Origin: Minisyncoccota bacterium
Lineage (GTDB): Bacteria; Patescibacteriota; Minisyncoccia; Phycocordibacterales; UBA918
Assembly: GCA_035324355.1 (NCBI GenBank)
Contig: DAOLBU010000002.1
Coordinates: forward strand, 1 to 51,197
DNA: 51,197 nt
Direction of reading: 5' to 3'
Under the pieces are notes generated by a model, which did no database searches, was not told where the DNA came from, and saw only the letters and a program-made list of their open reading frames with translations. Numbering within the stretch: the stretch's first letter is position 1; each line of letters begins with the position of its first letter. The translations under genes and the position numbers were made by a program. Shown here piece by piece: positions 11,238 to 36,737 of this stretch.

Positions 11238-12009
11238 TTTTTATTAGGCGGTGTTTGAGAAGTCGTAGTTGACCCAAAAGTAGGGCAAAGAGGTAACCCG
11301 GATACCCTAAGTGTCTCTTTTTAATAATCGCTAATACAGCGGTGGACATTTTGCTCCCATGATCGTTTTCACTGGCATCATGGACCCGATGGGCAGTGGC
11401 GATTATGGGTAAATTTTTAAACTCGCCAAAGTGACCGAGTTGGAGAAAAAGATCTAAGTCCTCAGCTAGGGTCGGTTGGTAGCCTTGAGTTTTTTCTAAG
11501 GCAGCAGCGCGCATCAGTACTGCTGAATGCGTGAATTGATTACGGACTAATATTTTACGGCGAATAGCTTTGTCAGTAGTTTCATAAAAGTAATCTTTTA
11601 TTTTTTTTCCGTCTCGGTTTATCAGTCTAGTTTGGGTACCAACGACTGCCAATGAAGCATTTGTCTCAATGGACTCAACTTGCTTAGTGAGCTTCTCTTT
11701 ATCAATCCAGACATCATCACTGTCAATAACAGCGACATATTTACCTGTAACGTAACTAAGACTTTCTTTCCGTCTAGCAAACAATCCAGCATTCTTTTCG
11801 TGTTTAATATAGCGAAGGCGCTTGTCAGCGAAACCCTGAATAACATTTTCTGAGTTGTCAGTTGAACCGTCATCAATTATTACTAACTCAAAATTTTGGT
11901 AGGTCTGCGATAGGACACTAGAAATAGCCTCGGATAGAAAATGACCCCGGTTATAGGTCAACATGAGAACACTCACTAGAGGTTCTTTTACTTGGCTAAT
12001 TGTATCCAT
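11230..12009 (-). CDS. glycosyltransferase family 2
   Basis: VSVLMLTYNRGHFLSEAISSVLSQTYQNFELVIIDDGSTDNS and AVIDSDD (DxD). Its 3' end overlaps the 3' end of galE by 8 nt. Confidence 0.8.
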   Translation of the reverse strand: MDTISQVKEPLVSVLMLTYNRGHFLSEAISSVLSQTYQNFELVIIDDGSTDNSENVIQGFADKRLRYIKHEKNAGLFARRKESLSYVTGKYVAVIDSDDVWIDKEKLTKQVESIETNASLAVVGTQTRLINRDGKKIKDYFYETTDKAIRRKILVRNQFTHSAVLMRAAALEKTQGYQPTLAEDLDLFLQLGHFGEFKNLPIIATAHRVHDASENDHGSKMSTAVLAIIKKRHLGYPGYLFALLLGQLRLLKHRLIKTK

Positions 12010-12854
12010 GATGAGGGAAGTAGGTTGGGGTCATAATCAATGGTATCAAACCAGGGTGTTGGTGCAATGACTAACTTACTCGGATTTTGATTGAGCCAGG
12101 CACCCCACCAGCTGAAGCTACTATTAGCAATAATATTGTGCTGACATTGACTCATTAAGCTTAATTCTTCAGCATCCTTGAGTGATGGGTCAGAGACAAA
12201 AACAGTGTCTTCATCAAGCTCTAGATTATTTTTGACCCAAGCGATATCGTCCGAGAAGACAAAAAATTTCGCGTCTTTAACTTCGGTCTTGAGTTTGTCT
12301 ATTGCTCGTTGATAATAATCTTTAGTACATGGTCCAAATTGTTTTTTGACTATCAGATTACTTAAGTAGTCACCTCTTCGTATATGAAGTGAGACAGAAT
12401 TACTTAACTGCATTTGCTCAAGGATATTGCGACCATATTCCGGCAAGGGAACTTTGAGGGTAAATTCTTTCAGGAGAAGATCTCGGATGTTTTCAAAGTA
12501 AAGGGGTGATTGGAAGTATCCGTCTAGGTAGAGGTTTCCTTTCTGGTTTAAGTACTCTGCTTTGAATAAGTTAGTTTGGTCGCCCCAAAGGGAGTTTTTT
12601 ATTCTGCGCGTTATTTTAGTCAAAAGTCCCTCAGGCTTTTTAGAGGCAGCTATGTCTGCCAGCGAAGCGAGGTCTTGTTGGATATTAAAAAGCGCTAAGC
12701 TAAAGGGGCGATAGATATTTCCTATTCTCTTCGCTTGATCTAGTGAATGGATGTCTAGCTTTAAAATGTCATTATTTTTAATCGACAAAGCCCGACCAAA
12801 AGCATACTGAAACATTTGGTTACCCAGCCCGCCTTTGAGATTGATAATTATCAT
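11988..12854 (-). CDS. alpha-1,2-fucosyltransferase (GT11)
   Basis: N-terminal GGLGNQMFQYAFGRAL, HIRRGDY motif, and C-terminal SSFSWWGAWL. Confidence 0.85.
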   Translation of the reverse strand: MIIINLKGGLGNQMFQYAFGRALSIKNNDILKLDIHSLDQAKRIGNIYRPFSLALFNIQQDLASLADIAASKKPEGLLTKITRRIKNSLWGDQTNLFKAEYLNQKGNLYLDGYFQSPLYFENIRDLLLKEFTLKVPLPEYGRNILEQMQLSNSVSLHIRRGDYLSNLIVKKQFGPCTKDYYQRAIDKLKTEVKDAKFFVFSDDIAWVKNNLELDEDTVFVSDPSLKDAEELSLMSQCQHNIIANSSFSWWGAWLNQNPSKLVIAPTPWFDTIDYDPNLLPSSWIQLAK

Positions 12855-15792: not shown

Positions 15793-16842
15793 CTACTTTA
15801 ATAACTTATACTTTATCTTTTCAATAAAATTAATATGTTTGAATGGACGATATAAATTAGAGCCAATCTTAATCAAGAGACGTCTGTATTTAATGAAGAT
15901 GGCTGATATTTTTTCTCTCAAAATCATTTCACTAAGGCGATTCAGATTGATGGTTGCTTGAGGTGCTTTGCTAAGAGGTATATCAAAAATATGTTGCAAA
16001 AATGTTTCAAGGCCCAATTTAATTTTGGAGAAATCATACTCTGGAATAGAAATAGGTTCATTTACGATACTCAAATATAAGTTATCATCATTATCAATTT
16101 CTTTAACCCGTCTTAAGACATCATCAAAACTGTCATAGTCATGGCAGTTAATAAATCTTTTTTTGTTGAACTGTTTATCAATATCAGTATCTCCCCAATA
16201 AATGGGAATTGTTTGGGCCATAAATGCACCGATGATTTTTTCTGTAGTGTAGCCAGATCGTGAAGAGTTTTCACAAGCAATAGAAAATTTATGTTTTGAC
16301 TCAAAAGCTAATTTGTTAGCCACCGGACCGCCAATATTATTGAGATACTTTCCCCCAGCGTTTACCTTCTTATATGAACTAAGTGAAGTAAAGAGTGCTT
16401 GTCGGGCCTTTTCTCCGCGATAGTTTGAGTATACAAAACTACAAAAATCAGTTTTGTCTTTTAGCTGGTCTGGAGTTAATTGTAGCTGTTTTGTCCAGTC
16501 AGTATTGACGGTCTGTAACAATTCCTCTGGACGATAAAAAATAGAATTTAAATAAATAGGGAAGCGGTAATAACGTTCGCCGAAATCAAGCCAATCAAAA
16601 CCGATGGCATAATCGCATAAATTAAAGTTTGGGGAGACATTTTCACCTGTGTAAAAAATTTTTACACAGTCATATTTTAAGTGTTCATCTGTAGATTCGT
16701 GATAGAAAATATAATCAGGTGTTTCAGAAATTTCAACAGTATAATATTTACTTAAGATTGCATGAAAAAAATACGCATATGTCCCGGGAGTTGTGTGGTC
16801 AGAGTGGCCATACTTTAAAAATTTTACGCGAATTTTTTTCAT
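15793..16842 (-). CDS. alpha-1,3(/4)-fucosyltransferase (GT10)
   Basis: FSIACENSSRSGYTTEKIIGAF matches the conserved GT10 motif (..ENS....Y.TEK). The N-terminal half is also GT10-like (FYTGEN..DYAIGFD). Confidence 0.8.
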   Translation of the reverse strand: MKKIRVKFLKYGHSDHTTPGTYAYFFHAILSKYYTVEISETPDYIFYHESTDEHLKYDCVKIFYTGENVSPNFNLCDYAIGFDWLDFGERYYRFPIYLNSIFYRPEELLQTVNTDWTKQLQLTPDQLKDKTDFCSFVYSNYRGEKARQALFTSLSSYKKVNAGGKYLNNIGGPVANKLAFESKHKFSIACENSSRSGYTTEKIIGAFMAQTIPIYWGDTDIDKQFNKKRFINCHDYDSFDDVLRRVKEIDNDDNLYLSIVNEPISIPEYDFSKIKLGLETFLQHIFDIPLSKAPQATINLNRLSEMILREKISAIFIKYRRLLIKIGSNLYRPFKHINFIEKIKYKLLK

Positions 16843-19629: not shown

Positions 19630-20853
19630 TTAATTATATTTAGCCAAAAATTCGTTTATTTTACTCTCTAGATATAGTATTTGATCTTCATCAAGTCCAT
19701 GATGGCAGGCAAGAACAAATGCGTTTTTCATAATGAAGTCAGTATTTGGTAAAATGTTACTTATTTTCCTGCTTTCAATCTTTTTGAAACCTGGTTGTTT
19801 AAGAATATTACCCGTAAATACTGGGCGGGTTTGGATGTTGTTTCCTTCTAGGAAAGTGACAATTTCAAGACGAGTGAATGGAGATTTTGGTTTAATAATC
19901 ACCGGGAAGGCAAGCCAGGCAGTTTCTGTATCTGGAGTTTGGGTGGGTAAAATAAAGTACTTATCTTTGGTACTTATAAATTTTGTTAGATTTTCAAAAT
20001 TTTTCTGCCTTTTTGCTAAAAATCCAGGCAAACGCTTCATTTGTGCCAAGGCAAAGGCTGATGATACTTCTAGTGGAAGAAAATTATAGCCTATTTCACT
20101 AAAAGTAAATTTATTATCATATGGAACTCCGCCTAATTTGTAATTAAATCTATTTTTAAGTAGTTCGGAGTTTGCTTTTTCACCATAAAGAGAGGATTGT
20201 CGACCCCAGCCCCGAAGTACCTTTAGCCGATGTTCCCATTTTGAATCATTTACCATAATCATACCTCCTCCACCGGCGCCATTGATTATGTGTGATCCGT
20301 AGAAGCTGGTAATAGAAATATCAGAATAAACGCCAGTTGGCTTACCTTCAAATTTTCCACCCAGTGTGTCACATGAGTCCTCAATGAAAAAAAGCTTATG
20401 TTTTTTCGCTAGGTCAGAATACGCTCTCATATTAGGGATATTACCCATTAGTGACGGAATCATTAAAGCCTTAGTTTTCTTTGTTATGGCCTTTTTTACT
20501 TGTTCAAAATTAGGGAGGTAGGTGGTAGGATCAACATCAACAAACACGGGGATTAATCCCTTTTGGATAATAGGAGCAACAACTGTGGCAAAGGTAAGAG
20601 CGGGTGTTATTACTTCTGATCCTTTCGGGAGGTTGAGTAATTCGAATGCTAAAAGGTTGGCAGAACTACCTGAGTTAACCATTACCCCATATTTTTTCCC
20701 AAACAATTTTGCGATTTTTGCCTCAAATTCTGAAGTTTTATCTCCGATTGCCGTGTTGCCCTTGAGTACTTCGACAACTGCATCAATTTCTTCTTGTCCA
20801 TGAACCGAAAAACCGTACGGCACTCTTAGTTTTGTTTGTTTAGTTTTTGACAT
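19630..20853 (-). CDS. RfbH/DdhC (E1)-like NDP-4-keto-6-deoxyhexose 3-dehydrase of the DegT/DnrJ/EryC1 fold
   Basis: NSGSSANLLA, GLIPVFVDVDPTTY, FIEDSCDTLG, SFYGSHIINGAGGGG (His at the PLP-Lys position), YDNKFTFSEIGYNF and TRPVFTGNILKQPGF. Confidence 0.8.
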   Translation of the reverse strand: MSKTKQTKLRVPYGFSVHGQEEIDAVVEVLKGNTAIGDKTSEFEAKIAKLFGKKYGVMVNSGSSANLLAFELLNLPKGSEVITPALTFATVVAPIIQKGLIPVFVDVDPTTYLPNFEQVKKAITKKTKALMIPSLMGNIPNMRAYSDLAKKHKLFFIEDSCDTLGGKFEGKPTGVYSDISITSFYGSHIINGAGGGGMIMVNDSKWEHRLKVLRGWGRQSSLYGEKANSELLKNRFNYKLGGVPYDNKFTFSEIGYNFLPLEVSSAFALAQMKRLPGFLAKRQKNFENLTKFISTKDKYFILPTQTPDTETAWLAFPVIIKPKSPFTRLEIVTFLEGNNIQTRPVFTGNILKQPGFKKIESRKISNILPNTDFIMKNAFVLACHHGLDEDQILYLESKINEFLAKYN

Positions 20854-22010: not shown

Positions 22011-23294
22011 ATGGATTTGAATTACCCCCCACATCACCTCATAAAAAATGGTCACATCAGTACTTGTCAGGTGTGTAATTCAAGTAAACTTCATACTATT
22101 TTAGATTTGGGTCACCAGCCTCTTTGCGATACATTGCTAACAGAAGCAATGCTAAATGAACCTGAGATAAATTACCCATTACGTATGATTTGGTGCGAAG
22201 ATTGCACTAACTCGCAGATTGATCATTGTGTTGACGGTAGTGAAGTTTATCATCCCAATTATCCTTATAAGAGTGGCGTCACAAAGGAACTTGTTGAATA
22301 TCAAGTAAAAATTGCTGAGTCATTAATAAAAAAATATAATCTACAACCAAATGATTTAGTTGTGGACGTTGGTTCAAATGACGGGACGCTGCTGAGTGGA
22401 TTTAAAGATACGGGCATTAGAGCTCTCGGAGTGGAGCCAACTAACGTTGCAAAAATTGCTAATGAAAATGGAATTGAGACTGTCCAGTCATTTTTCGATA
22501 TAAAAACGTCTGAGGCGATCAAGTTAAGTCATGGACAAGCATCGGTTATTGTCACAACCAATACTTTTGCTCATATGCAAACGCTAGGGGAGGTTATCAT
22601 GGGTGCTTATAATCTACTTAAAGATGACGGCGTTTTTGTTACAGAAACCCACTACTTACTTAATGTTATTGAAGGCGGTCAGTTTGATACCGTTTATCAT
22701 GAACACTTAAGAACGTATTCTCTAAAAGCTTTGGTCACGCTTTTTAATCAATATGATTTTACGGTTACAGATGTAGAGCGTGGCGATAGATATGGTGGCA
22801 ATATTAGGGTGCATGTGACTAAAGGAAAAGGACGAGTAGTTTCTCCTGCGGTCGCAAAATTACTGGAACTTGAAGAAGCTTCTGGTTTAAATAAATTAGA
22901 GACATACACAAAGTTTGCTAAAAGAGTTCAAGCCGCCCGGCTAAAGTTTGTTGACTTTCTTGTTTCTTCAAAGCAGGCAGGTAAGAAAGTTGTCGGTAAC
23001 TCGTGTCCAGGAAGATGTGTGACCCTGCTTAATTACTATGGTGTAGACTCAGAATTGTTACCCTATTTGGCCGAGCAGCCAGCTTCTTTGAAGCTCGGTA
23101 TGTATCTACCCGGAAAGCATATTCCAGTTGTAAATAATCAAATTCTTATTGATGAACAGCCGGATTATGTAGTGCTCCTTGCGTGGCATTACGCTAAGCC
23201 TATAATGGAACAATTAAAAGCACGTGGGTTAAAGTCGGATTTCGTACTGCCTCTTCCTGACTTCGAAATTGTTAAAAATGAGGATGTTAATTAA
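22011..23294 (+). CDS. NDP-hexose C-methyltransferase (TylCIII-like; Zn-ribbon + class I MT + C-methyltransferase C-terminal domain)
   Basis: N-terminal CQVCNSSKL..LGHQPLCDTL zinc ribbon, SAM motif VVDVGSNDGTLL, and HEHLRTYS with a long C-terminal domain. Confidence 0.8.
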   Translation: MDLNYPPHHLIKNGHISTCQVCNSSKLHTILDLGHQPLCDTLLTEAMLNEPEINYPLRMIWCEDCTNSQIDHCVDGSEVYHPNYPYKSGVTKELVEYQVKIAESLIKKYNLQPNDLVVDVGSNDGTLLSGFKDTGIRALGVEPTNVAKIANENGIETVQSFFDIKTSEAIKLSHGQASVIVTTNTFAHMQTLGEVIMGAYNLLKDDGVFVTETHYLLNVIEGGQFDTVYHEHLRTYSLKALVTLFNQYDFTVTDVERGDRYGGNIRVHVTKGKGRVVSPAVAKLLELEEASGLNKLETYTKFAKRVQAARLKFVDFLVSSKQAGKKVVGNSCPGRCVTLLNYYGVDSELLPYLAEQPASLKLGMYLPGKHIPVVNNQILIDEQPDYVVLLAWHYAKPIMEQLKARGLKSDFVLPLPDFEIVKNEDVN

Positions 23295-24314
23295 ATGAGG
23301 ATAGGAATTATTGGTTCAGGCTTTGGTCTTTACGGTTTATTTCCCGCATTTAATTCTGTAGATGGTTGCAAGGTGGTTTCAGTGTGTGGAAAGAAAACAG
23401 ACAGATTACTCAGTTATTGTGCAAGTGTAGGGCCAGTCAGTATATATACTGACTGGCAAGAGATGCTTAAAAAAGAAGAGTTAGACGCTGTTGCTATAGC
23501 GGTTGTACCGAGTGCTCAGTTTGTTATAGCTAAGCAGGCTCTTGCTCAAGGACTCCATGTTTTTGCTGAAAAACCCCTCGCTTCTTCTTATGAAGAAGCG
23601 TCTGAACTTTGTGATTTGGCTTTTAAATACAAACGTATTACGGCGGTCGATTTTATTTTTCCAGAAATTGATGAATGGCAGATGGTTAAACAAATACTTG
23701 AACAAAAAATGTATGGTAATTTAAAAAGTATTTCTGTTGCCTGGGATTTTTTAAGTTATGATATTAAAAACAAGATAGTATCTTGGAAAACTAATGTAAA
23801 AGAAGGCGGTGGGGCACTTTCTTTTTATTTTTCCCATGTACTATACTATCTTGAGTATTTTGGCGGGAAAATAAAAACAATCGGGGGCAGTTTGCATTAT
23901 TTTCCTCAGGAAAGTTTGGGTGGTGGAGATGTCGGGGTAGATGTCGACATGATTTTTGGTAATGGAGTGATTGGTAAGGCGCATCTTTCTTGCAATTCTC
24001 ATGATAATCACCAACATGTAGTTACTTTCGAGTGTGACAATGGATCTCTCACTCTTAAGAGTATGAAAGGCGTTACGGAAAACTTTACCGTCACAGTTTC
24101 TTCTCATGGGAAAGATCAAATTATTCCTATTCGAAAGCTGGGAAAGCGAAATATTGAAGAGGATGAGCGGGTAAGAGTAGTGTCAAAAATTGCTGCCAGG
24201 TTTGTGAAAGCTTGTAATGAAAATACTAAGATGACTCCTTCTTTTGATGATGGTCTACGAGTCGAAGAGTTAATTGATATAGTTCGAAGTAACGCCTCAG
24301 TATATGTCGCTTAA
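23295..24314 (+). CDS. Gfo/Idh/MocA-family oxidoreductase
   Basis: MRIGIIGSGFG Rossmann start and the EKPLA motif. The ATG directly abuts the upstream TAA. Confidence 0.8.
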   Translation: MRIGIIGSGFGLYGLFPAFNSVDGCKVVSVCGKKTDRLLSYCASVGPVSIYTDWQEMLKKEELDAVAIAVVPSAQFVIAKQALAQGLHVFAEKPLASSYEEASELCDLAFKYKRITAVDFIFPEIDEWQMVKQILEQKMYGNLKSISVAWDFLSYDIKNKIVSWKTNVKEGGGALSFYFSHVLYYLEYFGGKIKTIGGSLHYFPQESLGGGDVGVDVDMIFGNGVIGKAHLSCNSHDNHQHVVTFECDNGSLTLKSMKGVTENFTVTVSSHGKDQIIPIRKLGKRNIEEDERVRVVSKIAARFVKACNENTKMTPSFDDGLRVEELIDIVRSNASVYVA

Positions 24315-24341: not shown

Positions 24342-24761
24342 TTGGAAAAAACTGATGATACTGAAATAAGAGGAGAGATTTGGCATCAACTAGTTAAGAA
24401 GTTCATTACTGTAGCTACAGAACTTTGTATTTTAGACAATAAAAATAGAGTCCTTTTAATCTATAGAAAAGACCGAGAATTTGATGGTTATCATCTACCT
24501 GGCTCTGTTGTTAATAATTGGGAAACTGGCAAGGGGGCACTGTCTCGATTAATTTTTCAAGAAGTCACAGTGGGCGTGGGTAGTGATATGACAGAACCAG
24601 AGCCGCTTGGATGGCTTGGCTCATCTAAGGATGCTGGTCCTGCTGAGCCGTCCTCTCGTCATGGAGTTTTGCTTCTACATGTTGCACGTTTTTCCGACGC
24701 CTTTCTTCCAAGAGAGGTAGTGGCATTTTACGATTTAATAATCTTCCACAAAACCCACTAG
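24342..24761 (+). CDS. Nudix-fold protein with a degenerate Nudix box
   Basis: LILDNKNRVLLIYRK..GYHLPGSVV..E..ALSRLIFQEVTVG. The track start is TTG, so the start is uncertain. Confidence 0.45.
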   Translation: MEKTDDTEIRGEIWHQLVKKFITVATELCILDNKNRVLLIYRKDREFDGYHLPGSVVNNWETGKGALSRLIFQEVTVGVGSDMTEPEPLGWLGSSKDAGPAEPSSRHGVLLLHVARFSDAFLPREVVAFYDLIIFHKTH

Positions 24762-24788: not shown

Positions 24789-25012
24789 AAGAAATATATT
24801 GAAAAAAGATTAATTTTAGGAAAATAAGGCCTTTTTAAAAGCCCCAGTGTCTTCAGAAGCCGTATTTTGATGAATAATGTAGACTATAAAATTTTTATAC
24901 TCAGATATTAAGAATTCAAAGTAGTGGTTTAAAGAAATAACTAATTTAAGGCTTGTTTACATATACTAACCATATATGTATACTTTTGACTAATGAGGAG
25001 GTTATATATCTT

Positions 25013-26083
25013 ATGAATCATTTTTACTCGGGCAAAAAGGTCCTTATTACTGGACATACGGGTTTTAAAGGCGCATGGCTCACCCAAGTACTTTTGGGCT
25101 GGGGAGCGGAAGTTGTAGGGGTATCTTTGGCTCCATCAACGACACCAAATCTTTTTACTCTTTTAGGTCACCAGCACCAGATTACAAATTATTATTGTGA
25201 TATTAGAGATACAGCCGATGTGCTTAAGATTATAGACAGTAATAAACCAGAGATATTATTTCATTTGGCAGCTCAGCCGCTTGTGCGCCGTAGTTATGAA
25301 GACCCACTTTTAACCATTTCCACCAATGCCACAGGCACGGCCAGTGTACTTGATGCAATCAAGCAAGCAGGAACAGTAAAATCTGTTGTGGTTATTACCA
25401 CTGATAAAGTATATAAGGATCAAGATTGGGTTTATCCATACCGTGAAATAGATATGCTGGGAGGTTATGATCCATATAGTGCAAGTAAAGCAGCCGCTGA
25501 CATTATCACTCAGTCTTATATACAATCGTTTTTTAATCCGAAAGACTACGGAGTCACTCACAATACTCTTGTGGCTATTGCGCGAGCTGGGAACGTTATT
25601 GGGGGTGGAGATTGGGCTAAGGATAGACTTATTCCTGATATCATGCGCGCAGTATACGAAAAGAATATTCCCGTTTTGCTTCGGTATCCGAAAGCGATTA
25701 GACCCTGGGAGCACGTTTTAGAATCTCTTTCCGGCTACCTTATGTTGGCGCAGAGGATTTATCTAGGACAAAAGAATCTCGTGGGTGCCTGGAACTTTGG
25801 GCCATTATCTGAGAGTTTTGTTAGTGTAGAGTCGGTTACAAAGACTATATTGTCAAACCTGAGGCGTGGATCTGTCATTATTGACCCTAATCCTAACGCT
25901 CACGAAACCAATTTGTTAAGATTGGATATCTCTAAAGTCAGTACTCAACTTGGTTGGAGTCCAACTTTAAATTATAAAGAGACTATAGACTATACAGCGT
26001 CATGGTATAAAGAGTATTATGAAAACCGTGACGTTTCTGTAATTACCAAAGAGCAAATTAACACTTTTTTCAAAAACATATGA
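25013..26083 (+). CDS. rfbG: CDP-glucose 4,6-dehydratase
   Basis: KKVLITGHTGFKGAWL, VVITTDKVY and YSASKAA (SDR catalytic motif), PWEHVLE. GAGGAG Shine-Dalgarno sequence at 24995-25000. ATG 25013 is preferred over 24953. Confidence 0.88.
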   Translation: MNHFYSGKKVLITGHTGFKGAWLTQVLLGWGAEVVGVSLAPSTTPNLFTLLGHQHQITNYYCDIRDTADVLKIIDSNKPEILFHLAAQPLVRRSYEDPLLTISTNATGTASVLDAIKQAGTVKSVVVITTDKVYKDQDWVYPYREIDMLGGYDPYSASKAAADIITQSYIQSFFNPKDYGVTHNTLVAIARAGNVIGGGDWAKDRLIPDIMRAVYEKNIPVLLRYPKAIRPWEHVLESLSGYLMLAQRIYLGQKNLVGAWNFGPLSESFVSVESVTKTILSNLRRGSVIIDPNPNAHETNLLRLDISKVSTQLGWSPTLNYKETIDYTASWYKEYYENRDVSVITKEQINTFFKNI

Positions 26084-26850
26084 AAGTAGTCATCTTGGCA
26101 GGAGGATATGGTACTCGTATCAGCGAAGAAACTCATGCACGTCCTAAGCCGATGGTGGAGATTGGCGGTAAACCAATTTTGTGGCATCTAATGAAAATTT
26201 ATTCTCACTACGGTTTTAATGAGTTCATTATTTGTCTTGGTTATAAAGGTTACTATATTAAGGAATGGTTTAATAACTATTACTTGCATACGAATGATGC
26301 CACTTTAGACCTTGAACATAACACTACTACCTTCCATAATAACCTAAGCGAAAAATGGAAAGTAACTTTAGTGGATACTGGAGAGCATACAATGACAGGC
26401 GGGAGAGTAAAAAGAGTGCAAAAATTTGTGGGAAATGAAACTTTCATGCTCACTTATGGAGACGGACTTTCTGATGTCAATATTACTGAGCTGGTGGCTA
26501 CTCATAAAGCCCATAAAAAGCTAGCAACAGTCACAGCGGTAATTCCAGAAGGGAAGTTCGGTGTTTTAGCAATAGATGATAAATCTTCGGTAACATCTTT
26601 TAGTGAAAAAACTGACAATAAAAGCCGTATTAACGGTGGTTTTTTTGTGCTTGAACCAGAAGTTTTTTCGTATCTTAATGACGACGGAACTATTTTTGAG
26701 AAAGCACCACTTGAAGCGTTGGCAACCGATGGTCAGCTTAAAGCTTTTAATCATGATGGATTTTGGAAACCGATGGATACACTAAACGACAAGAATAAAT
26801 TGGAGACACTTTGGACTACCGATAGCGCTCCATGGAAGCTGTGGTCGTAA
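26080..26850 (+). CDS. rfbF: glucose-1-phosphate cytidylyltransferase
   Basis: MKVVILAGGYGTRISEET..PKPMVEIGGKPILWHLMKIYS and FWKPMDTLNDK. ATGA overlap with rfbG. Confidence 0.9.
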   Translation: MKVVILAGGYGTRISEETHARPKPMVEIGGKPILWHLMKIYSHYGFNEFIICLGYKGYYIKEWFNNYYLHTNDATLDLEHNTTTFHNNLSEKWKVTLVDTGEHTMTGGRVKRVQKFVGNETFMLTYGDGLSDVNITELVATHKAHKKLATVTAVIPEGKFGVLAIDDKSSVTSFSEKTDNKSRINGGFFVLEPEVFSYLNDDGTIFEKAPLEALATDGQLKAFNHDGFWKPMDTLNDKNKLETLWTTDSAPWKLWS

Positions 26851-26853
26851 TTT

Positions 26854-28602
26854 ATGCAAAAGACATCGCAAGAAAAAATTTATGCGGATGAGATTGTAGA
26901 TTTCTTAGTGAGCCATAAAATTACTAAAGTTTTTGATTTGACTGGGGGAATGATTGCTTTTATCGAAGATGCTATTGGTCGACATCAAGAAATAGAATGT
27001 ATACCAATGCACCATGAACAAGCTGCTGGATTCGCTGCCGAAGGCTATGCGCGTACAAGTGGTAAATTTGGTGTAGCTATGGCAACTAGCGGTCCTGGGG
27101 CCACTAATCTTATTACAGCTATTGGTAGTTGTTTTTTTGATTCAGTACCAGCTTTGTTTATAACCGGGCAAGTTCACTCCAAAAATTTGAAAAAGAAGGC
27201 AGAGGTAAGACAAGAAGGTTTTCAAGAAACAGATATTGTTTCGATGGTAAAACATATCACTAAGTTTGCTGTTCAAGTCGCTAGTCCAGAAGAGATTGTC
27301 CCAAATTTAGTAAAAGCTTACTCAATAATGAAAGAAGGTAGACCAGGACCAGTACTTATTGATATACCGATAAACTTTCAACGCACTAAAGTAAGTAACA
27401 AAAAAATTAGCCTAAATAAAATAGCTAAAAATAATAACCGTATAGATAATAAAAAGAAAATAAAGGAACTTGAAGATTTGTTAGAAAAATCAACCGCACC
27501 ACTATTGTTAGTAGGGCATGGAGTTCGTATTGCACAAGCTGAGGAGTTATTAGCAAAATTCCAAAAAAATAATAACCTTCCAGTCGTTTCATCTCTAATG
27601 GGACTTGATGTGTTTCCTCATAATAAAAATTTTGTTGGTTATATTGGGACTAATGGTAATCGTGATGCAAATATTATATTTGCTAACGCTGATTTAATTA
27701 TTGTACTAGGTTCCCGGCTTGATCTAAGACAAACCGGAGATCCGGATCTTTTTAACAAGAGTGCAAAAATCGTTCATGTTGATATAGATGAATATTCTAT
27801 TAACTACGGTATTAAATCGACCCTATTTTTTGTTTCTGATTTAAAGGATTTTCTTTTAGATGTAGAACATCTCAAGACCTCGAGTAAAGCTGTGTGGGTA
27901 AAATTCATCTCAAAAATTAAAAAACATTTCTCCAGAGTAGAGTTGCCAGGGAAGAGTGTTAACCCAAATTTATTTTTTAATGAACTTTCGTCAATCGCCC
28001 ATAAGAATACAGTTGCCGTGATTGATGTGGGTCAAAACCAACAATGGTGTGCTCAGTCCTGGAAAGTACAAAAAGGACAACGTTTATTATTTTCGGGGGG
28101 TATGGGAGCTATGGGTTTTTCATTACCTGCGGCCATAGGAGCTTGGTATACTGACATGACTACTCCAGTTGTGGTAATTACTGGCGATGGTGGTTTACAG
28201 ATAAATATCCAAGAACTTGAGACTGTTTCTCGAAATAAAATTCCGCTTAAAATTTTTGTTTTTAACAACAAATCACTAGGAATGGTCCGTGAATTTCAGG
28301 ATTTATATTTAAATAAGAATACTTACACAACCGTAGGTGGGTATGGTAATCCTGACTTTAAAAAGTTGTCTAGTGCATACAATATTTCATACAGTTTGAT
28401 TTCCAAAAATGTCGGGACACAAAGACTAAATGAGATACTTAATTCAAGTGTCGCTGAGTTTGTAGAAGTTTTAGTTGATGCAGAGGCGCCTCTCCATCCC
28501 AGAACTGTTTATGGACATGCATTAGACGACCAAGCTCCATACCTTAGTGTAGAACAAAAAGAGCTACTAGAGTCTTTAAAAGCTGAGTTACATACCCGAT
28601 GA
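26854..28602 (+). CDS. thiamine-diphosphate-dependent, acetolactate-synthase-large-subunit-like enzyme (YerE-like candidate)
   Basis: 582 aa in a three-domain ALS-like layout. N-terminal HEQAAGFAAEGYAR..SGPGATN. ThDP motif GDGGLQINIQEL..(24 aa)..NN. Confidence 0.85.
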   Translation: MQKTSQEKIYADEIVDFLVSHKITKVFDLTGGMIAFIEDAIGRHQEIECIPMHHEQAAGFAAEGYARTSGKFGVAMATSGPGATNLITAIGSCFFDSVPALFITGQVHSKNLKKKAEVRQEGFQETDIVSMVKHITKFAVQVASPEEIVPNLVKAYSIMKEGRPGPVLIDIPINFQRTKVSNKKISLNKIAKNNNRIDNKKKIKELEDLLEKSTAPLLLVGHGVRIAQAEELLAKFQKNNNLPVVSSLMGLDVFPHNKNFVGYIGTNGNRDANIIFANADLIIVLGSRLDLRQTGDPDLFNKSAKIVHVDIDEYSINYGIKSTLFFVSDLKDFLLDVEHLKTSSKAVWVKFISKIKKHFSRVELPGKSVNPNLFFNELSSIAHKNTVAVIDVGQNQQWCAQSWKVQKGQRLLFSGGMGAMGFSLPAAIGAWYTDMTTPVVVITGDGGLQINIQELETVSRNKIPLKIFVFNNKSLGMVREFQDLYLNKNTYTTVGGYGNPDFKKLSSAYNISYSLISKNVGTQRLNEILNSSVAEFVEVLVDAEAPLHPRTVYGHALDDQAPYLSVEQKELLESLKAELHTR

Positions 28603-29528
28603 GAAAAATAAAAAGGATTTCTTTATTAGGAGCGAGTGGGTATATAGGAAGATCATTAGTACCACTCTTCCTGGAACAGCAGACAAAGTATGAGCTACAC
28701 CTCTTTTCCCGTACTCCTGATGTATTGTCAAAAAAGCTTGTAACATTGTATGGCTCTAATTTTCAATCTCAAATTCACCATTTTAAAGATTTTCTTCAAG
28801 TAGATTGTGATGTGGTATTGAATGCTACTGGAATTAGTGATTCTCGTGAAATAGCAAAAAATCCAAGGTATGTTTTGGAGACGACAGCATTAATTGATGA
28901 TGTCATTATTTCCAAACTTAAGAAGAAATCCGAAATTACTTACATTAACTTTAGTAGTGGTGCAGTGCATGAAAGCCGTTCAGATAAAGTAACTCGTGAA
29001 GAGAAAACGGATCGAAATTTAGTAAATAATATGTTAAGCCGTGAATATTACATCATGGCTAAACAGCAGGCAGAAGCTAAGCATAGAACATTAATTGATT
29101 TGTCTATAGTTGATGTGAGAGTGTTCGCATTTTTTAGTCGTTTTGTCGACATAAGAAATACGTTTCTTATGTCTCAAATTGCCAGTAGTCTAAAAGAAAA
29201 AAAAGTTTTTCTTACTAATAGTACTGATATTATCAGAGATTATATTACACCTGATGATTTGTTTCGTTTTATCGAGTGTGTTATTTCCTCACCTAGTAAT
29301 TGTGCTTATGACGTTTATAGTTTGGAACCAGTATCAAAATTTTTATTGTTAACGCATTTGAATAAAAACTTTGGTTTACAATATGAGATATCTGATGTTG
29401 ATTTAAGCACAACCTTAGCGAAAGAAATCTATTTTTCAACTAATTACGCAGCTAAAAATATCGGATATCGTCCTACGCACACCTCTTTGTCAGGTATATG
29501 CAAAGAACTGGACAAGTTTTTAGAATAA
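28599..29528 (+). CDS. NAD(P)-dependent epimerase/dehydratase-family (SDR) protein, probable sugar ketoreductase
   Basis: ISLLGASGYIGRSL Rossmann motif and YxxxK-like YIMAK. ATGA overlap with the ThDP enzyme gene. Confidence 0.65.
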   Translation: MRKIKRISLLGASGYIGRSLVPLFLEQQTKYELHLFSRTPDVLSKKLVTLYGSNFQSQIHHFKDFLQVDCDVVLNATGISDSREIAKNPRYVLETTALIDDVIISKLKKKSEITYINFSSGAVHESRSDKVTREEKTDRNLVNNMLSREYYIMAKQQAEAKHRTLIDLSIVDVRVFAFFSRFVDIRNTFLMSQIASSLKEKKVFLTNSTDIIRDYITPDDLFRFIECVISSPSNCAYDVYSLEPVSKFLLLTHLNKNFGLQYEISDVDLSTTLAKEIYFSTNYAAKNIGYRPTHTSLSGICKELDKFLE

Positions 29529-33401: not shown

Positions 33402-34580
33402 CTATGAAGCTAAAAGTGATTTGATCAGGTTAATATCTTCACTTGTTAATTCGGGGTAGTTACCACAATAAAAAGCATTTGCATGTAAATAGTCAGTCTT
33501 GGGGAGTTTATATGATTCCTTTACATATTTGGTGTAAAAGGGCTGTTTTGTTATATTTCCTGCAATCATAGGACGTACTTCAACACCTGCTTCAATAAAA
33601 CGTCTAACATAGAAGTCCTTTTTATCAGAAGTTTTGCATATGAAGGGTATAGCAAATGTTGATAGTTTCTTTATGTGGCTTTTATTCGGAACGATAAAAT
33701 CTCGGTTTTCTTTTAGAGCAGCTTCAACTTCTATGTAGTTTTGGTACCTCTTATCTATGTTTGCATCAAGATACTCAAGCTGTGTGAGGCCTAAAAACCC
33801 CGTAATCTCTGTCGGCCTTAAATTATATGCCAAATCGTAAAATGTATATTTAGATTGAAATTCGCTTTCAACGTTGTATTTTTTGCGTAGTTGCTCTTGT
33901 TTGTTACAAGATAAGTTTCTGTCCCAACCATTTGCTCTGACTATTGTAATCATGTCAGATAGTTCAGTGTCATTTGTACAAATCATGCCACCCTCAATAG
34001 TCGACATGTGATGTGCAACAAAGAAAGAAAAAGTTGATGCAACACCAAAGTTACCAGTTCTACCTTCGACTAATTCTGTGCCCAGGGACTCACAGTTGTC
34101 TTCAATCAATATTATATTTCGTTCTTCGCAGATATCTTTGATTCCGGCCAGGTCATCAGTAAAGCCAAGAGCATTGGTAATAAAGAAAGCATCTAGGTGT
34201 GTTTCTTCAATTCGCACTTGTAGGGTTTGACGAGAACTATTTAGCGTTTCAATTTCACAGTCAATTGGAACAGGAACCATATTGAGCTGTATGATAGGCA
34301 TTACATTTGTTGACCAGGTAAGTGCTGAAAAGCCAATACGGTCACCATTTTTCAGACGTCCCAAATTTTTTAAGGCTTGGAGAAGGGCTAAATTTGCTGA
34401 GCCGCCGCTATTGAATAGTGATGCGTGTTTAGTACGTTGCTTTTCCGCAAAGGCTTTTTCAAAAGAAAGGCATTGCTCACCCATAGATAATTTCTCAGCA
34501 TTAATGATGAATTCAGCCAGAGCCCTTTTTGTTGTTGCTTCTTCTATAAAGGCAAACTTCATGAGTGGAATAGTGTACAT
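33402..34580 (-). CDS. ColD-like NDP-4-keto-6-deoxyhexose 3-dehydratase (DegT fold, His replaces the PLP lysine)
   Basis: NSGGSANLALLQAL, LIEDNCESLG, STFSFFVAHHMSTIEGG and RANGWDRNL. It lies in the same-strand run as gmd and fcl. Confidence 0.72.
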   Translation of the reverse strand: MYTIPLMKFAFIEEATTKRALAEFIINAEKLSMGEQCLSFEKAFAEKQRTKHASLFNSGGSANLALLQALKNLGRLKNGDRIGFSALTWSTNVMPIIQLNMVPVPIDCEIETLNSSRQTLQVRIEETHLDAFFITNALGFTDDLAGIKDICEERNIILIEDNCESLGTELVEGRTGNFGVASTFSFFVAHHMSTIEGGMICTNDTELSDMITIVRANGWDRNLSCNKQEQLRKKYNVESEFQSKYTFYDLAYNLRPTEITGFLGLTQLEYLDANIDKRYQNYIEVEAALKENRDFIVPNKSHIKKLSTFAIPFICKTSDKKDFYVRRFIEAGVEVRPMIAGNITKQPFYTKYVKESYKLPKTDYLHANAFYCGNYPELTSEDINLIKSLLAS

Positions 34581-34611
34581 AATTAATTATCTGTTATTAA
34601 TCAAACGGGTC

Positions 34612-35538
34612 TTATATTTTATTGAGATACCAATCATAGGTTTTTTGTATACCTTCTTTTAATTCAATACTGTGATGCCAGCCAAGATCATGGATTTTTG
34701 AAACATCAAGCAATTTGCGGGGAGTTCCATCTGGTTTACTTTTATCCCACTCCAATGTTCCTTTATAGTCTACAATGTTCGCAATGGTTTCAGCTAGCTC
34801 TTTGATAGTAACATCTTCACCAGTACCAATATTTACAATCTCGGACTCATCATAAGTTTCCATCAAATGTAAACAAGCAGTAGCGAGGTCGTCAACATAA
34901 AGAAATTCACGCATAGGAGTGCCTGTGCCCCATGTCGTTACGCTTGGCGCATTGTTAATTTTTGCTTCATGAAAGCGTCTTATGAAAGCCGGTAATACGT
35001 GTGCTGTTTCGAGATTGAAATTATCATTTGGACCATACAGGTTAGTTGGCATCACAGAAATAAAATTTGTGTCATATTGTTTATTGTAAGCTTGGCACAT
35101 TTTTAGTCCTGCTATTTTTGCCAGTGCGTATGCTTCATTACTTGTCTCCAAAAGGCTAGTTAAAAGGGACTCTTCCTTAATGGGTTGAGGGCAGAGTTTT
35201 GGATAGATGCAAGAACTGCCTAAAAATAATAATTTGGTAACCTGATTTAAATATGAATTGTGAATAATATTATTTTGGATTTGGAGATTATGGTAGATGA
35301 AGTTAGCCGGAGAGGTCTTGTTGGCCATGATTCCACCGACTTTGGCAGCGGCCAAGAAAACATACTCGGGTTTTTCTTGAGCGAAAAAATACGCAACAGC
35401 TTTTTGGTTAAGAAGATCTAGTTCGTCACGAGTGCGGGTGATGATGTTCTCAAAACCACTCTTCTCAAGTGTTCTTACTAAAGCTGAACCTACTAGCCCT
35501 CGATGTCCCGCAACGTATATTTTAGCTGTTTTTTCCAT
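34612..35538 (-). CDS. fcl: GDP-L-fucose synthase / GDP-4-keto-6-deoxymannose epimerase-reductase (Fcl, or the ColC homologue)
   Basis: [31 protein letters not shown] and [12 protein letters not shown]. Confidence 0.85.
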
Positions 35539-35543
35539 TGTAA

Positions 35544-36602
35544 TTAAAAATAAAAGTGGCCGTTATTCTTTTTCATCAACTCAAAGTCTGCTCTGGTCAT
35601 CTGTTTGGCCAGATCGGCAAATTTTATTTTAGCTTCCCAGCCAAGTTTAGCTTTTGCTTTACTAGGGTCACCGAGTAAAAGGTCTACTTCAGTGGGACGA
35701 AAGTATTGCGGGTTGATTTTAATAATTGTTTTTTTAGTTTTTTTGTCGACACCTATTTCATCGACTCCCTTACCGGTCCACTCCAATTCAATATCTAGTT
35801 CTGCACAGGCAGCTTCGATAAATTCTCGGACACTATGTGTCTCCCCGGTAGCTATAACAAAATCATCCGGCTTCTCTTGTTGGAGCATTAGCCACATTGC
35901 TTCGACATACTCTTTGGCGTAACCCCAATCACGCTTGGCGTCGAGGTTGCCTAGTTCAAGTACTTCTTGTTGTCCCAATTTAATTTTGGAGAGACCAATG
36001 GTGATTTTTCGCGTTACAAAATTATAACCTCGGCGTTCACTTTCGTGGTTGAAGAGGATGCCATTGCAAGCAAACATGTCGTAAGCTTCACGATAATTTT
36101 TAATGATCCAAAAACTATAAAGTTTGGCGACACCATAAGGGCTACGGGGATAGAAAGGGGTTGTTTCAGTTTGTGGAGTTTCTTGAACCAAGCCGTAGAG
36201 TTCGGAGGTCGAGGCTTGGTAGAACTTAGTCCTTCCTCCAAGGCCTTGTTTGCGAATAGCTTCGAGGATAGTAAGTGAACCAAGAGCATCTGTTTCGGCG
36301 GTCAGCTCAGGTAGGTCAAAAGAAATGCGCACATGGCTCTGGGCCGCAAGGTTATAGACCTCGTCAGGTTCAATGTCTTTTATTAGAGCTGAGATGTTAG
36401 TAGTATCTGTTAGGTCGCCGTGGTGGAGAAAGAGCGTTTTATTATATATTTCTGGGTTGTTGAATAGGTGTTCAATGCGAGCGGTGCGGATGGAACTAGA
36501 TGGTCTAACAACTCCATGCACCTCATAGCCTTTTTCCAGCAGTAGTTCTGCTAAGTATGATCCGTCTTGTCCGGTGATTCCTGTAATTAAAGCTTTTTTC
36601 AT
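35544..36602 (-). CDS. gmd: GDP-mannose 4,6-dehydratase
   Basis: [44 protein letters not shown] and [11 protein letters not shown] 36602 is preferred over 36611. Confidence 0.92.
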
Positions 36603-36737
36603 AAAAGGCATTCTACCATTTAAATTTCACTAACAATAATTTTATATAACTGAAGCTTTGAGTAATTTGTTACATCTCCTTTGAGGACTTGTGACTAAAT
36701 GCAACTTTTTTTACTGCAGTTAAGTATTATTCTATAT

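Follow-up and report, generated by a model that had tools for sequence, protein, structure and literature searches.

A putative iron-sulfur-free relative of the E1 3-dehydrase in a patescibacterial glycan locus

The window analysed here is a 51,197-nucleotide stretch of contig DAOLBU010000002.1, from the Minisyncoccota genome assembly GCA_035324355.1. Its reverse strand carries a gene for a 407-residue protein (hereafter, the query) that resembles E1, the AscC/DdhC/RfbH protein of Yersinia and Salmonella; genes of cytidine diphosphate (CDP)-glucose metabolism lie a few kilobases away on the forward strand. E1 and its reductase E3 are the textbook case of a radical deoxygenation that depends on pyridoxamine 5'-phosphate (PMP) and is mediated by an iron-sulfur cluster. 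The query has the active-site signature of E1 without most of the cysteines that hold the E1 cluster, and it shares this condition with a large clade of relatives. What such an enzyme might do is the subject of what follows.

Active site and cluster ligands of the query

The DegT_DnrJ_EryC1 domain spans the full length of the query (Pfam, 6.8e-77). RfbH (NF011936) is its top NCBIfam model at 357.3 bits, under the curated 423-bit equivalog cut-off; canonical gammaproteobacterial genes reach 680-750 bits on the same model. By sequence match the closest solved structure is that of Yersinia E1, a CDP-6-deoxy-L-threo-D-glycero-4-hexulose 3-dehydrase (3bcx, 5e-75), followed by ColD, the guanosine diphosphate (GDP)-4-keto-6-deoxy-D-mannose 3-dehydratase (2GMS, 4e-53). 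An earlier note on this DNA, all of whose quoted motifs are found in the open reading frame (ORF), had the protein tracking RfbH closely: E1 is indeed the nearest structure, but the identity is only ~45% and the score falls short of the family cut-off.

Alignment to 3bcx and 3bb8 places His188 of the query (SFYGSH, with the same Y+3 spacing) opposite H220 of E1, the residue that takes the place of the lysine that binds pyridoxal 5'-phosphate (PLP), just as the note had read it. The catalytic lysine with which sugar aminotransferases of the DegT/DnrJ/EryC1 family form an internal aldimine is consequently absent from the query. Asp162 and Tyr185 occupy the positions of D194 and Y217 of E1, so that the dehydratase pattern is kept. 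The residue just before the catalytic histidine is Ser187, as it is in ColD (S187-H188); the title of PDB entry 3gr9 names this ColD pair as the one mutated by Holden's group.

The cluster ligands are another matter. E1 reportedly holds its [2Fe-2S] cluster in a C-X57-C-X1-C-X7-C motif, an assignment attributed to Agnihotri et al. in 2004; we take the ligands to be C193, C251, C253 and C261, a spacing that agrees with the 3bcx sequence. When residues are counted along the HMMER alignment of the query to 3bcx, C193 corresponds to Cys161, the sole ligand of the four to be retained, while C251, C253 and C261 correspond to Leu, Gly and Leu, and the further loop cysteine C257 to Asn. There are exactly two cysteines in the whole protein, at 161 (IEDSCDTLG) and 383 (LACHHG). 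Both the count and the cysteine-poor segment following RGWGR had been correctly noted from the sequence, and the thought that residues of some other iron-sulfur-binding kind might have been substituted finds no support in the alignment: Leu, Gly and Leu are not known to bind a cluster.

An AlphaFold2 model of the query, for which 53 sequences of the clade were used, is confident overall (predicted local distance difference test, pLDDT, 91.6; predicted template-modelling score, pTM, 0.89) and is weakest in the stretch that replaces the cysteine-rich loop (residues 211-250, pLDDT 57-78). Foldseek places E1 (3bcx) first, with a template-modelling (TM) score of 0.88, and ColD next, at 0.84. Outside the loop, only two alignment columns part the iron-sulfur forms from the clade among the representatives described below, at a consensus of at least 80%: A219 of E1, just before the catalytic histidine, becomes Ser (Ser187 of the query), and Y280 becomes Phe (Phe249). 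In both columns the ColD-like sequences agree with the clade.

The cysteine loop of the canonical enzymes has a peculiarity of its own. In the canonical E1 homologues P0169, P0191, P0197, P0211, P0248 and P0261, an intein lies within the loop, right after RDWGR[DES]; judged from these sequences, the nucleophile at extein position +1 would be Cys251, one of the cluster ligands.

Breadth and descent of the cysteine-less clade

Among the 150 closest cluster representatives (at 50% identity), 142 were long enough for classification: the CxC...C loop is present in 61 and missing from 74, and the other 7 are ColD-like. A profile of the cysteine-less form was used to fetch 80 genome loci, a set that by construction holds cysteine-less relatives only; in all 80 the loop is free of cysteine and the histidine motif SF[YF]xxH is kept, and in many of them the position of C193 is also taken, by Ala, leaving none of the four ligands. 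The earlier note had treated the variant as a peculiarity of a single protein, a view that gives way before a form found in about half of the closest representatives. The hosts of the 80 loci range over bacteria of the Candidate Phyla Radiation (CPR), Micrarchaeota, Methanosarcinales, Nitrosopelagicus, Gemmatimonadales and Flavobacteriales, and include Tatlockia, Sphingomonas, Ruegeria faecimaris DSM 28009 and Stappia sp. BW2. Homologues with 48-50% identity also reside on plasmids and chromids of Roseibium, Labrenzia, Leisingera, Ensifer and Sinorhizobium. In a sample of 400 Gammaproteobacteria, canonical RfbH scored above the cut-off in 10 and the cysteine-less form (~300-333 bits) was present in at least 10. 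By these comparisons the query belongs to a large, conserved clade, culturable carriers included.

Conservation within the clade bears directly on one conceivable explanation, that the query is an inactive relic of E1 with a lost cofactor site. The loss of three ligands would certainly disable the canonical chemistry. Against this stand the persistence of the clade in lineages as different as CPR bacteria, Alphaproteobacteria and archaea, intact reading frames, a conserved operon context and 65 invariant positions among 53 clade members that are 51-100% identical, His188 being one of the positions that never varies; Cys383-His384 is nearly invariant. Decay of the enzyme is accordingly very improbable.

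A first tree of the representatives, from which the loop columns were left out, places the query in an exclusively cysteine-less clade of 42 members (99% support in the SH-aLRT branch test). A second tree, calculated under a site-heterogeneous model and rooted with four lysine-type DegT aminotransferases, brings the histidine-type dehydratases together as one group (support 99). Within it, the ColD-like sequences, including a second DegT-family protein encoded in the window, form a clade of their own (support 94), and the cysteine-less clade of the query (37 rows, support 99) is nested in an 81-row group (support 99) together with E1 and other iron-sulfur forms. This was a quick search that deserves moderate trust, with an unresolved backbone and long outgroup branches. 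On the placements seen in these trees, the query is neither a member of the ColD family nor a canonical E1.

Redox partners and sugar-nucleotide context

The genome is of the CPR/Patescibacteria type (965 kb in 53 contigs, 97.8% complete), and the nearest homologues come from Paceibacteria, Taylorbacteria, Microgenomates and similar groups. Searches of the whole genome for protein families, whose positive controls gave hits in a majority of the named control genomes, returned zero matches to FAD_binding_6 (PF00970), NAD_binding_1 (PF00175), Fer2 (PF00111), the flavodoxin domain, the SufBD core scaffold and the NifU_N scaffold; one class-V aminotransferase gene and one radical SAM gene were found. 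Since Fer2, FAD_binding_6, NAD_binding_1 and flavodoxin are all absent, the genome holds neither an E3 nor general reductases of the kind that serve SpnQ, the 3-dehydrase of spinosyn synthesis that acts on deoxythymidine diphosphate (dTDP)-4-keto-2,6-dideoxyglucose. The lack of an E3-like gene, first remarked for the window, thus extends to any gene with the domains of ddhD/ascD in the genome.

Proximity is a poorer guide than content. No Fer2-FNR ORF was found beside the cysteine-less gene in any of ~90 cysteine-less loci, but only one of eight canonical gammaproteobacterial rfbH loci (L111-L118), all of which carry EDCCD, SFYPAH and the full cysteine loop, has an E3-like Fer2-FNR gene within ~9 kb. 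The exception is L113, with the gene order ddhD-ddhA-ddhB-ddhC; no E3-specific NCBIfam model was found, and its E3-like ORF matched only general models of the BenC and Fre types. Because the other seven canonical loci also lack a nearby E3, adjacency was dropped as a discriminator: a missing neighbour is uninformative about the query. Of the earlier argument from the missing partner, what counts is the genome-wide absence, and the case is carried by this absence together with the loss of ligands. Like SpnQ, many of the canonical E1 enzymes may draw on reductases whose genes lie elsewhere.

The same observations bear on whether the query might still work reductively, in the manner of E1 or SpnQ, through a cluster held partly by other residues or across the dimer interface, or with a partner of a new type. 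The surviving equivalent of one ligand, Cys161, and the nearly invariant Cys383-His384 pair could be enlisted for it, as could the canonical loci whose partners are encoded at a distance. On the other hand, Cys161 is Ala in many members of the clade, no redox domain is fused to any of the cysteine-less representatives, and searches of the genome for Fer2, FNR and flavodoxin domains, and for the SufBD and NifU scaffolds, came back empty. A hidden electron route is therefore quite improbable. SpnQ itself is like the query in being a PMP-dependent, histidine-type 3-dehydratase without a dedicated E3; it differs in having a [2Fe-2S] motif and the use of cellular ferredoxin/flavodoxin reductases, neither of which the query and its genome can offer.

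The gene neighbourhood is set out in Table 1. A divergent operon begins ~1.1 kb from the query gene, past an HD-domain gene, and its rfbG, rfbF and YerE-like genes lie 4-6 kb from the query gene.

Table 1. Assignments and positions of the features discussed (window coordinates, except where an accession is given)
Feature	Position	Strand	Basis or remark
GT11 and GT10 fucosyltransferase-like genes	11988-12854 and 15793-16842	-	downstream of the query gene
Query: E1/RfbH-like, PMP-type (His-for-Lys) nucleoside diphosphate (NDP)-hexose 3-dehydratase (predicted), cysteine-less clade, 407 aa	19630..20853	-	ORF, Pfam, NCBIfam, PDB matches, AlphaFold model
Loop W216-F236 (WGRQSSLYGEKANSELLKNRF), in place of the cysteine-rich [2Fe-2S] loop of E1 (C251, C253, C257, C261)	20146..20208	-	3bcx alignment
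Ser187-His188 codons; His188, catalytic, stands where the PLP lysine would be	20290..20295	-	alignment to 3bcx and 3bb8
Cys161, sole retained E1 ligand equivalent (C193); Ala in many clade members	20371..20373	-	alignment, clade loci
NDP-hexose (sugar) C-methyltransferase	22011-23294	+	domain search
GFO/IDH/MocA oxidoreductase	23295-24314	+	domain search
139-aa ORF between the GFO oxidoreductase gene and rfbG	24342-24761	+	no Pfam or NCBIfam match
CDP-glucose 4,6-dehydratase (RfbG/DdhB), maker of the presumed substrate	24953..26083	+	TIGR02622, 440 bits > 278-bit cut-off
Glucose-1-phosphate cytidylyltransferase (RfbF/DdhA)	26080..26850	+	TIGR02623, 406 bits > 300-bit cut-off
YerE-like thiamine diphosphate (ThDP) enzyme, presumed user of the 4-keto-3,6-dideoxy product	26854..28602	+	TPP_enzyme_N, _M, _C
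Short-chain dehydrogenase/reductase (SDR) epimerase/reductase, YerF-like candidate	28599..29528	+	Pfam Epimerase; overlaps the ThDP gene at its stop codon
ColD-like 3-dehydratase, second His-type DegT gene	33402-34580	-	SFFVAHHM, RANGWDRNL; best PDB match ColD 2gms, 2.4e-51
GDP-fucose-synthase/ColC-like gene	34612-35538	-	GDP-sugar module
gmd	35544-36611	-	GDP-sugar module, beside the ColC-like and ColD-like genes
Clade member L140, Roseibium aggregatum plasmid	NZ_CP045632.1, 345314-346546		PGAP name: DegT/DnrJ/EryC1/StrS family aminotransferase

The ThDP enzyme scores under every acetolactate-synthase equivalog cut-off, and its best PDB match is 5ahk (3e-113, as compared with 3e-84 for true acetolactate synthases), which we take to be a YerE homologue of Pseudomonas protegens. 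The acceptor of YerE is CDP-4-keto-3,6-dideoxyglucose (PMC9306805, PMC12247030). If the YerE-like enzyme acts on this sugar, the locus needs a 3-deoxygenation, for which the query gene is the sole candidate. The case for a CDP-sugar rests on RfbG and RfbF homologues that exceed their cut-offs in the window and recur across the clade: a CDP-glucose 4,6-dehydratase homologue lies within 10 kb in 61 of the 80 loci and a cytidylyltransferase homologue in 48. YerE-like enzymes accompany 20 of these loci and C-methyltransferases 14, and in L003 and L004, two close CPR loci, the C-methyltransferase and GFO/IDH/MocA genes recur with the E1-like gene. An operon of Roseibium aggregatum contributes further, with the order rfbF-rfbG-X-methyltransferase-oxidoreductase, where X is the clade member. 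Where cysteine-less representatives are fused, their partners are a 4,6-dehydratase, SDR reductases, or an RmlC-type 3,5-epimerase with an RmlD-type 4-reductase. The YerE-like neighbours and the fused domains that act on 4-keto sugars together imply a 4-keto product.

The closest assembled pathway is that of yersiniose A (ddhD-ddhA-ddhB-ddhC-yerE-yerF), for which the window provides equivalents of ddhA and ddhB, an E1-like gene, a YerE-like gene and an SDR gene. It differs in lacking ddhD, in having its E1-like gene on the opposite strand and coding for a protein without iron-sulfur ligands, and in its additional C-methyltransferase and GFO-family oxidoreductase.

That opposite orientation invites the suggestion that the query dehydrates some other nucleotide sugar, such as a GDP- or dTDP-sugar destined for the glycosyltransferases with which, rather than with rfbG and rfbF, its gene is co-directional; a GDP-mannose module is also at hand in the window. 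That module already has a ColD-like gene of its own, however, the clade keeps company with CDP-glucose genes across the 80 loci, the Roseibium member directly follows rfbF-rfbG, and the closest structure is that of the CDP-specific E1. A substrate other than a CDP-sugar is thus improbable.

Proposed reaction and the surrounding glycan locus

With the cluster ligands gone, no reductase in the genome and a CDP-sugar context, ColD-like, reductase-independent chemistry on a CDP-sugar is the most economical reading, in which release by hydrolysis and the identity of the amino donor are supplied by analogy. What ColD has in common with the query is the lack of an iron-sulfur cluster and of a reductase partner, as well as the Ser-His dyad; what sets it apart is its separate clade, the weaker match and a context of GDP-mannose genes (gmd, colC) in place of CDP-sugar genes. 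E1 is nearer in fold, in sequence, in the spacing of the histidine, in the Asp/Tyr signature, in its CDP-glucose context and in the tree; it parts from the query in the three lost ligands, in scoring above the RfbH cut-off, in its E3, and in having Ala before the catalytic histidine and Tyr at position 280. It is fairly probable, on sequence and genomic context, that the gene encodes a stand-alone, iron-sulfur-free CDP-4-keto-6-deoxy-D-glucose 3-dehydratase, and the enzyme probably uses an amino acid as its reductant, as ColD does. A precedent stands in the same locus, where a true ColD-like gene adjoins gmd.

The reaction would proceed as follows. PMP would condense with the sugar at C4 to a Schiff base, His188 would take the C4' proton, and the 3-hydroxyl would depart to leave a delta-3,4-glucoseen adduct. 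This adduct would be hydrolysed as in ColD, to PLP and an enamine, without one-electron transfers through a [2Fe-2S] cluster; tautomerisation of the enamine and loss of ammonia would then give CDP-4-keto-3,6-dideoxy-D-glucose. An amino acid, which the analogy with ColD suggests is glutamate, would convert PLP back into PMP. The 4-keto product would pass to the adjacent YerE-like ThDP enzyme, to the SDR reductase and possibly to the C-methyltransferase, and the pathway would end in a branched 3,6-dideoxy sugar destined for a surface glycan.

Several considerations weigh against this reading. The query gene shares the strand of the glycosyltransferase genes, opposite to rfbG, ~4 kb from it and outside its operon. 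Its clade lies outside the ColD clade, so that ColD-like chemistry would have arisen in parallel or be ancestral, and would not have been inherited from ColD. E1 does not use glutamate, and its use by the query is proposed from ColD only. The function assigned to the clade is predicted from sequence and context. Ser187 and Phe249 were tried as markers of iron-sulfur-free chemistry: the raw counts are striking and suggestive, but their link to cluster loss did not hold up in a test by phylogenetically independent pairs (8 pairs, median p of ~0.6). Finally, SpnQ deprived of its reductase is a 4-aminotransferase (PMC8987622), and by that analogy a lost reduction could mean another product.

This last point leads to the main rival, in which the query would act in practice as a PMP/PLP-dependent 4-aminotransferase that delivers an amino group to C4 and yields CDP-4-amino-4,6-dideoxyglucose. 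SpnQ, supplied with PLP and glutamate and no reductase, shows just such an activity (PMC8987622), and DegT-family aminotransferase is also the label that PGAP attaches to the Roseibium homologue. The active site speaks otherwise: where true sugar aminotransferases have their catalytic lysine, the clade invariably has histidine, and Asp162 and Tyr185 hold to the dehydratase pattern. Moreover, a 4-keto sugar is required both by the associated YerE-like gene and by the 3,5-epimerase and 4-reductase domains found in fusions, and the side activity is shown by neither ColD nor E1 (PMC8987622). A 4-aminotransferase is consequently unlikely; an electron route of another kind, another nucleotide sugar, and a relic are each less likely still.

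A review from 2022 on nucleotide-sugar dehydratases lists E1, ColD and SpnQ and no further enzyme of this kind (PMC8987622). Full-text literature searches, incomplete in coverage, turned up no description of an iron-sulfur-free 3-dehydratase of the CDP type, and to that extent the variant is undescribed, as the earlier note had supposed. Should the 3-dehydratase assignment be right, a large sister lineage that arrives at sugars of the same class with neither metal nor reductase would shift which of the mechanisms counts as typical, and the clade bears on the gain or loss of the E1 cluster. A broader proposition strikes us as evenly poised: that the cysteine-less clade comprises self-sufficient, metal-free, amino-acid-driven CDP-hexose 3-deoxygenases at least as common in nature as E1/E3, and that the PMP/[2Fe-2S] system would then be a specialised offshoot instead of the usual way to CDP-3,6-dideoxyhexoses. 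There is a practical side as well. Reconstitution of E1/E3 is hard, and one study reports that it did not achieve coupled activity (PMC7851689); a single, oxygen-tolerant enzyme, if that is what the gene encodes, would make CDP-3,6-dideoxyhexoses, and the branched sugars that YerE-type enzymes produce, easier to synthesise enzymatically. Public annotation of these proteins as generic aminotransferases also means that predictions of glycan structure from genomes miss the probable 3-deoxygenation step.

The remainder of the locus has its own features. The 139-residue ORF of the divergent operon may encode a small epimerase or isomerase acting on sugars. The reverse-strand genes at 33402-36611 resemble a module for GDP-colitose or GDP-fucose within the same glycan locus. 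Downstream of the query gene, a GT-D gene and several methyltransferase genes accompany the fucosyltransferase-like genes, a gene content that fits a surface glycan bearing fucose or colitose. A DegT-family gene is found in only 1 of 24 genomes of the same genus, which indicates that the glycan locus varies between strains.

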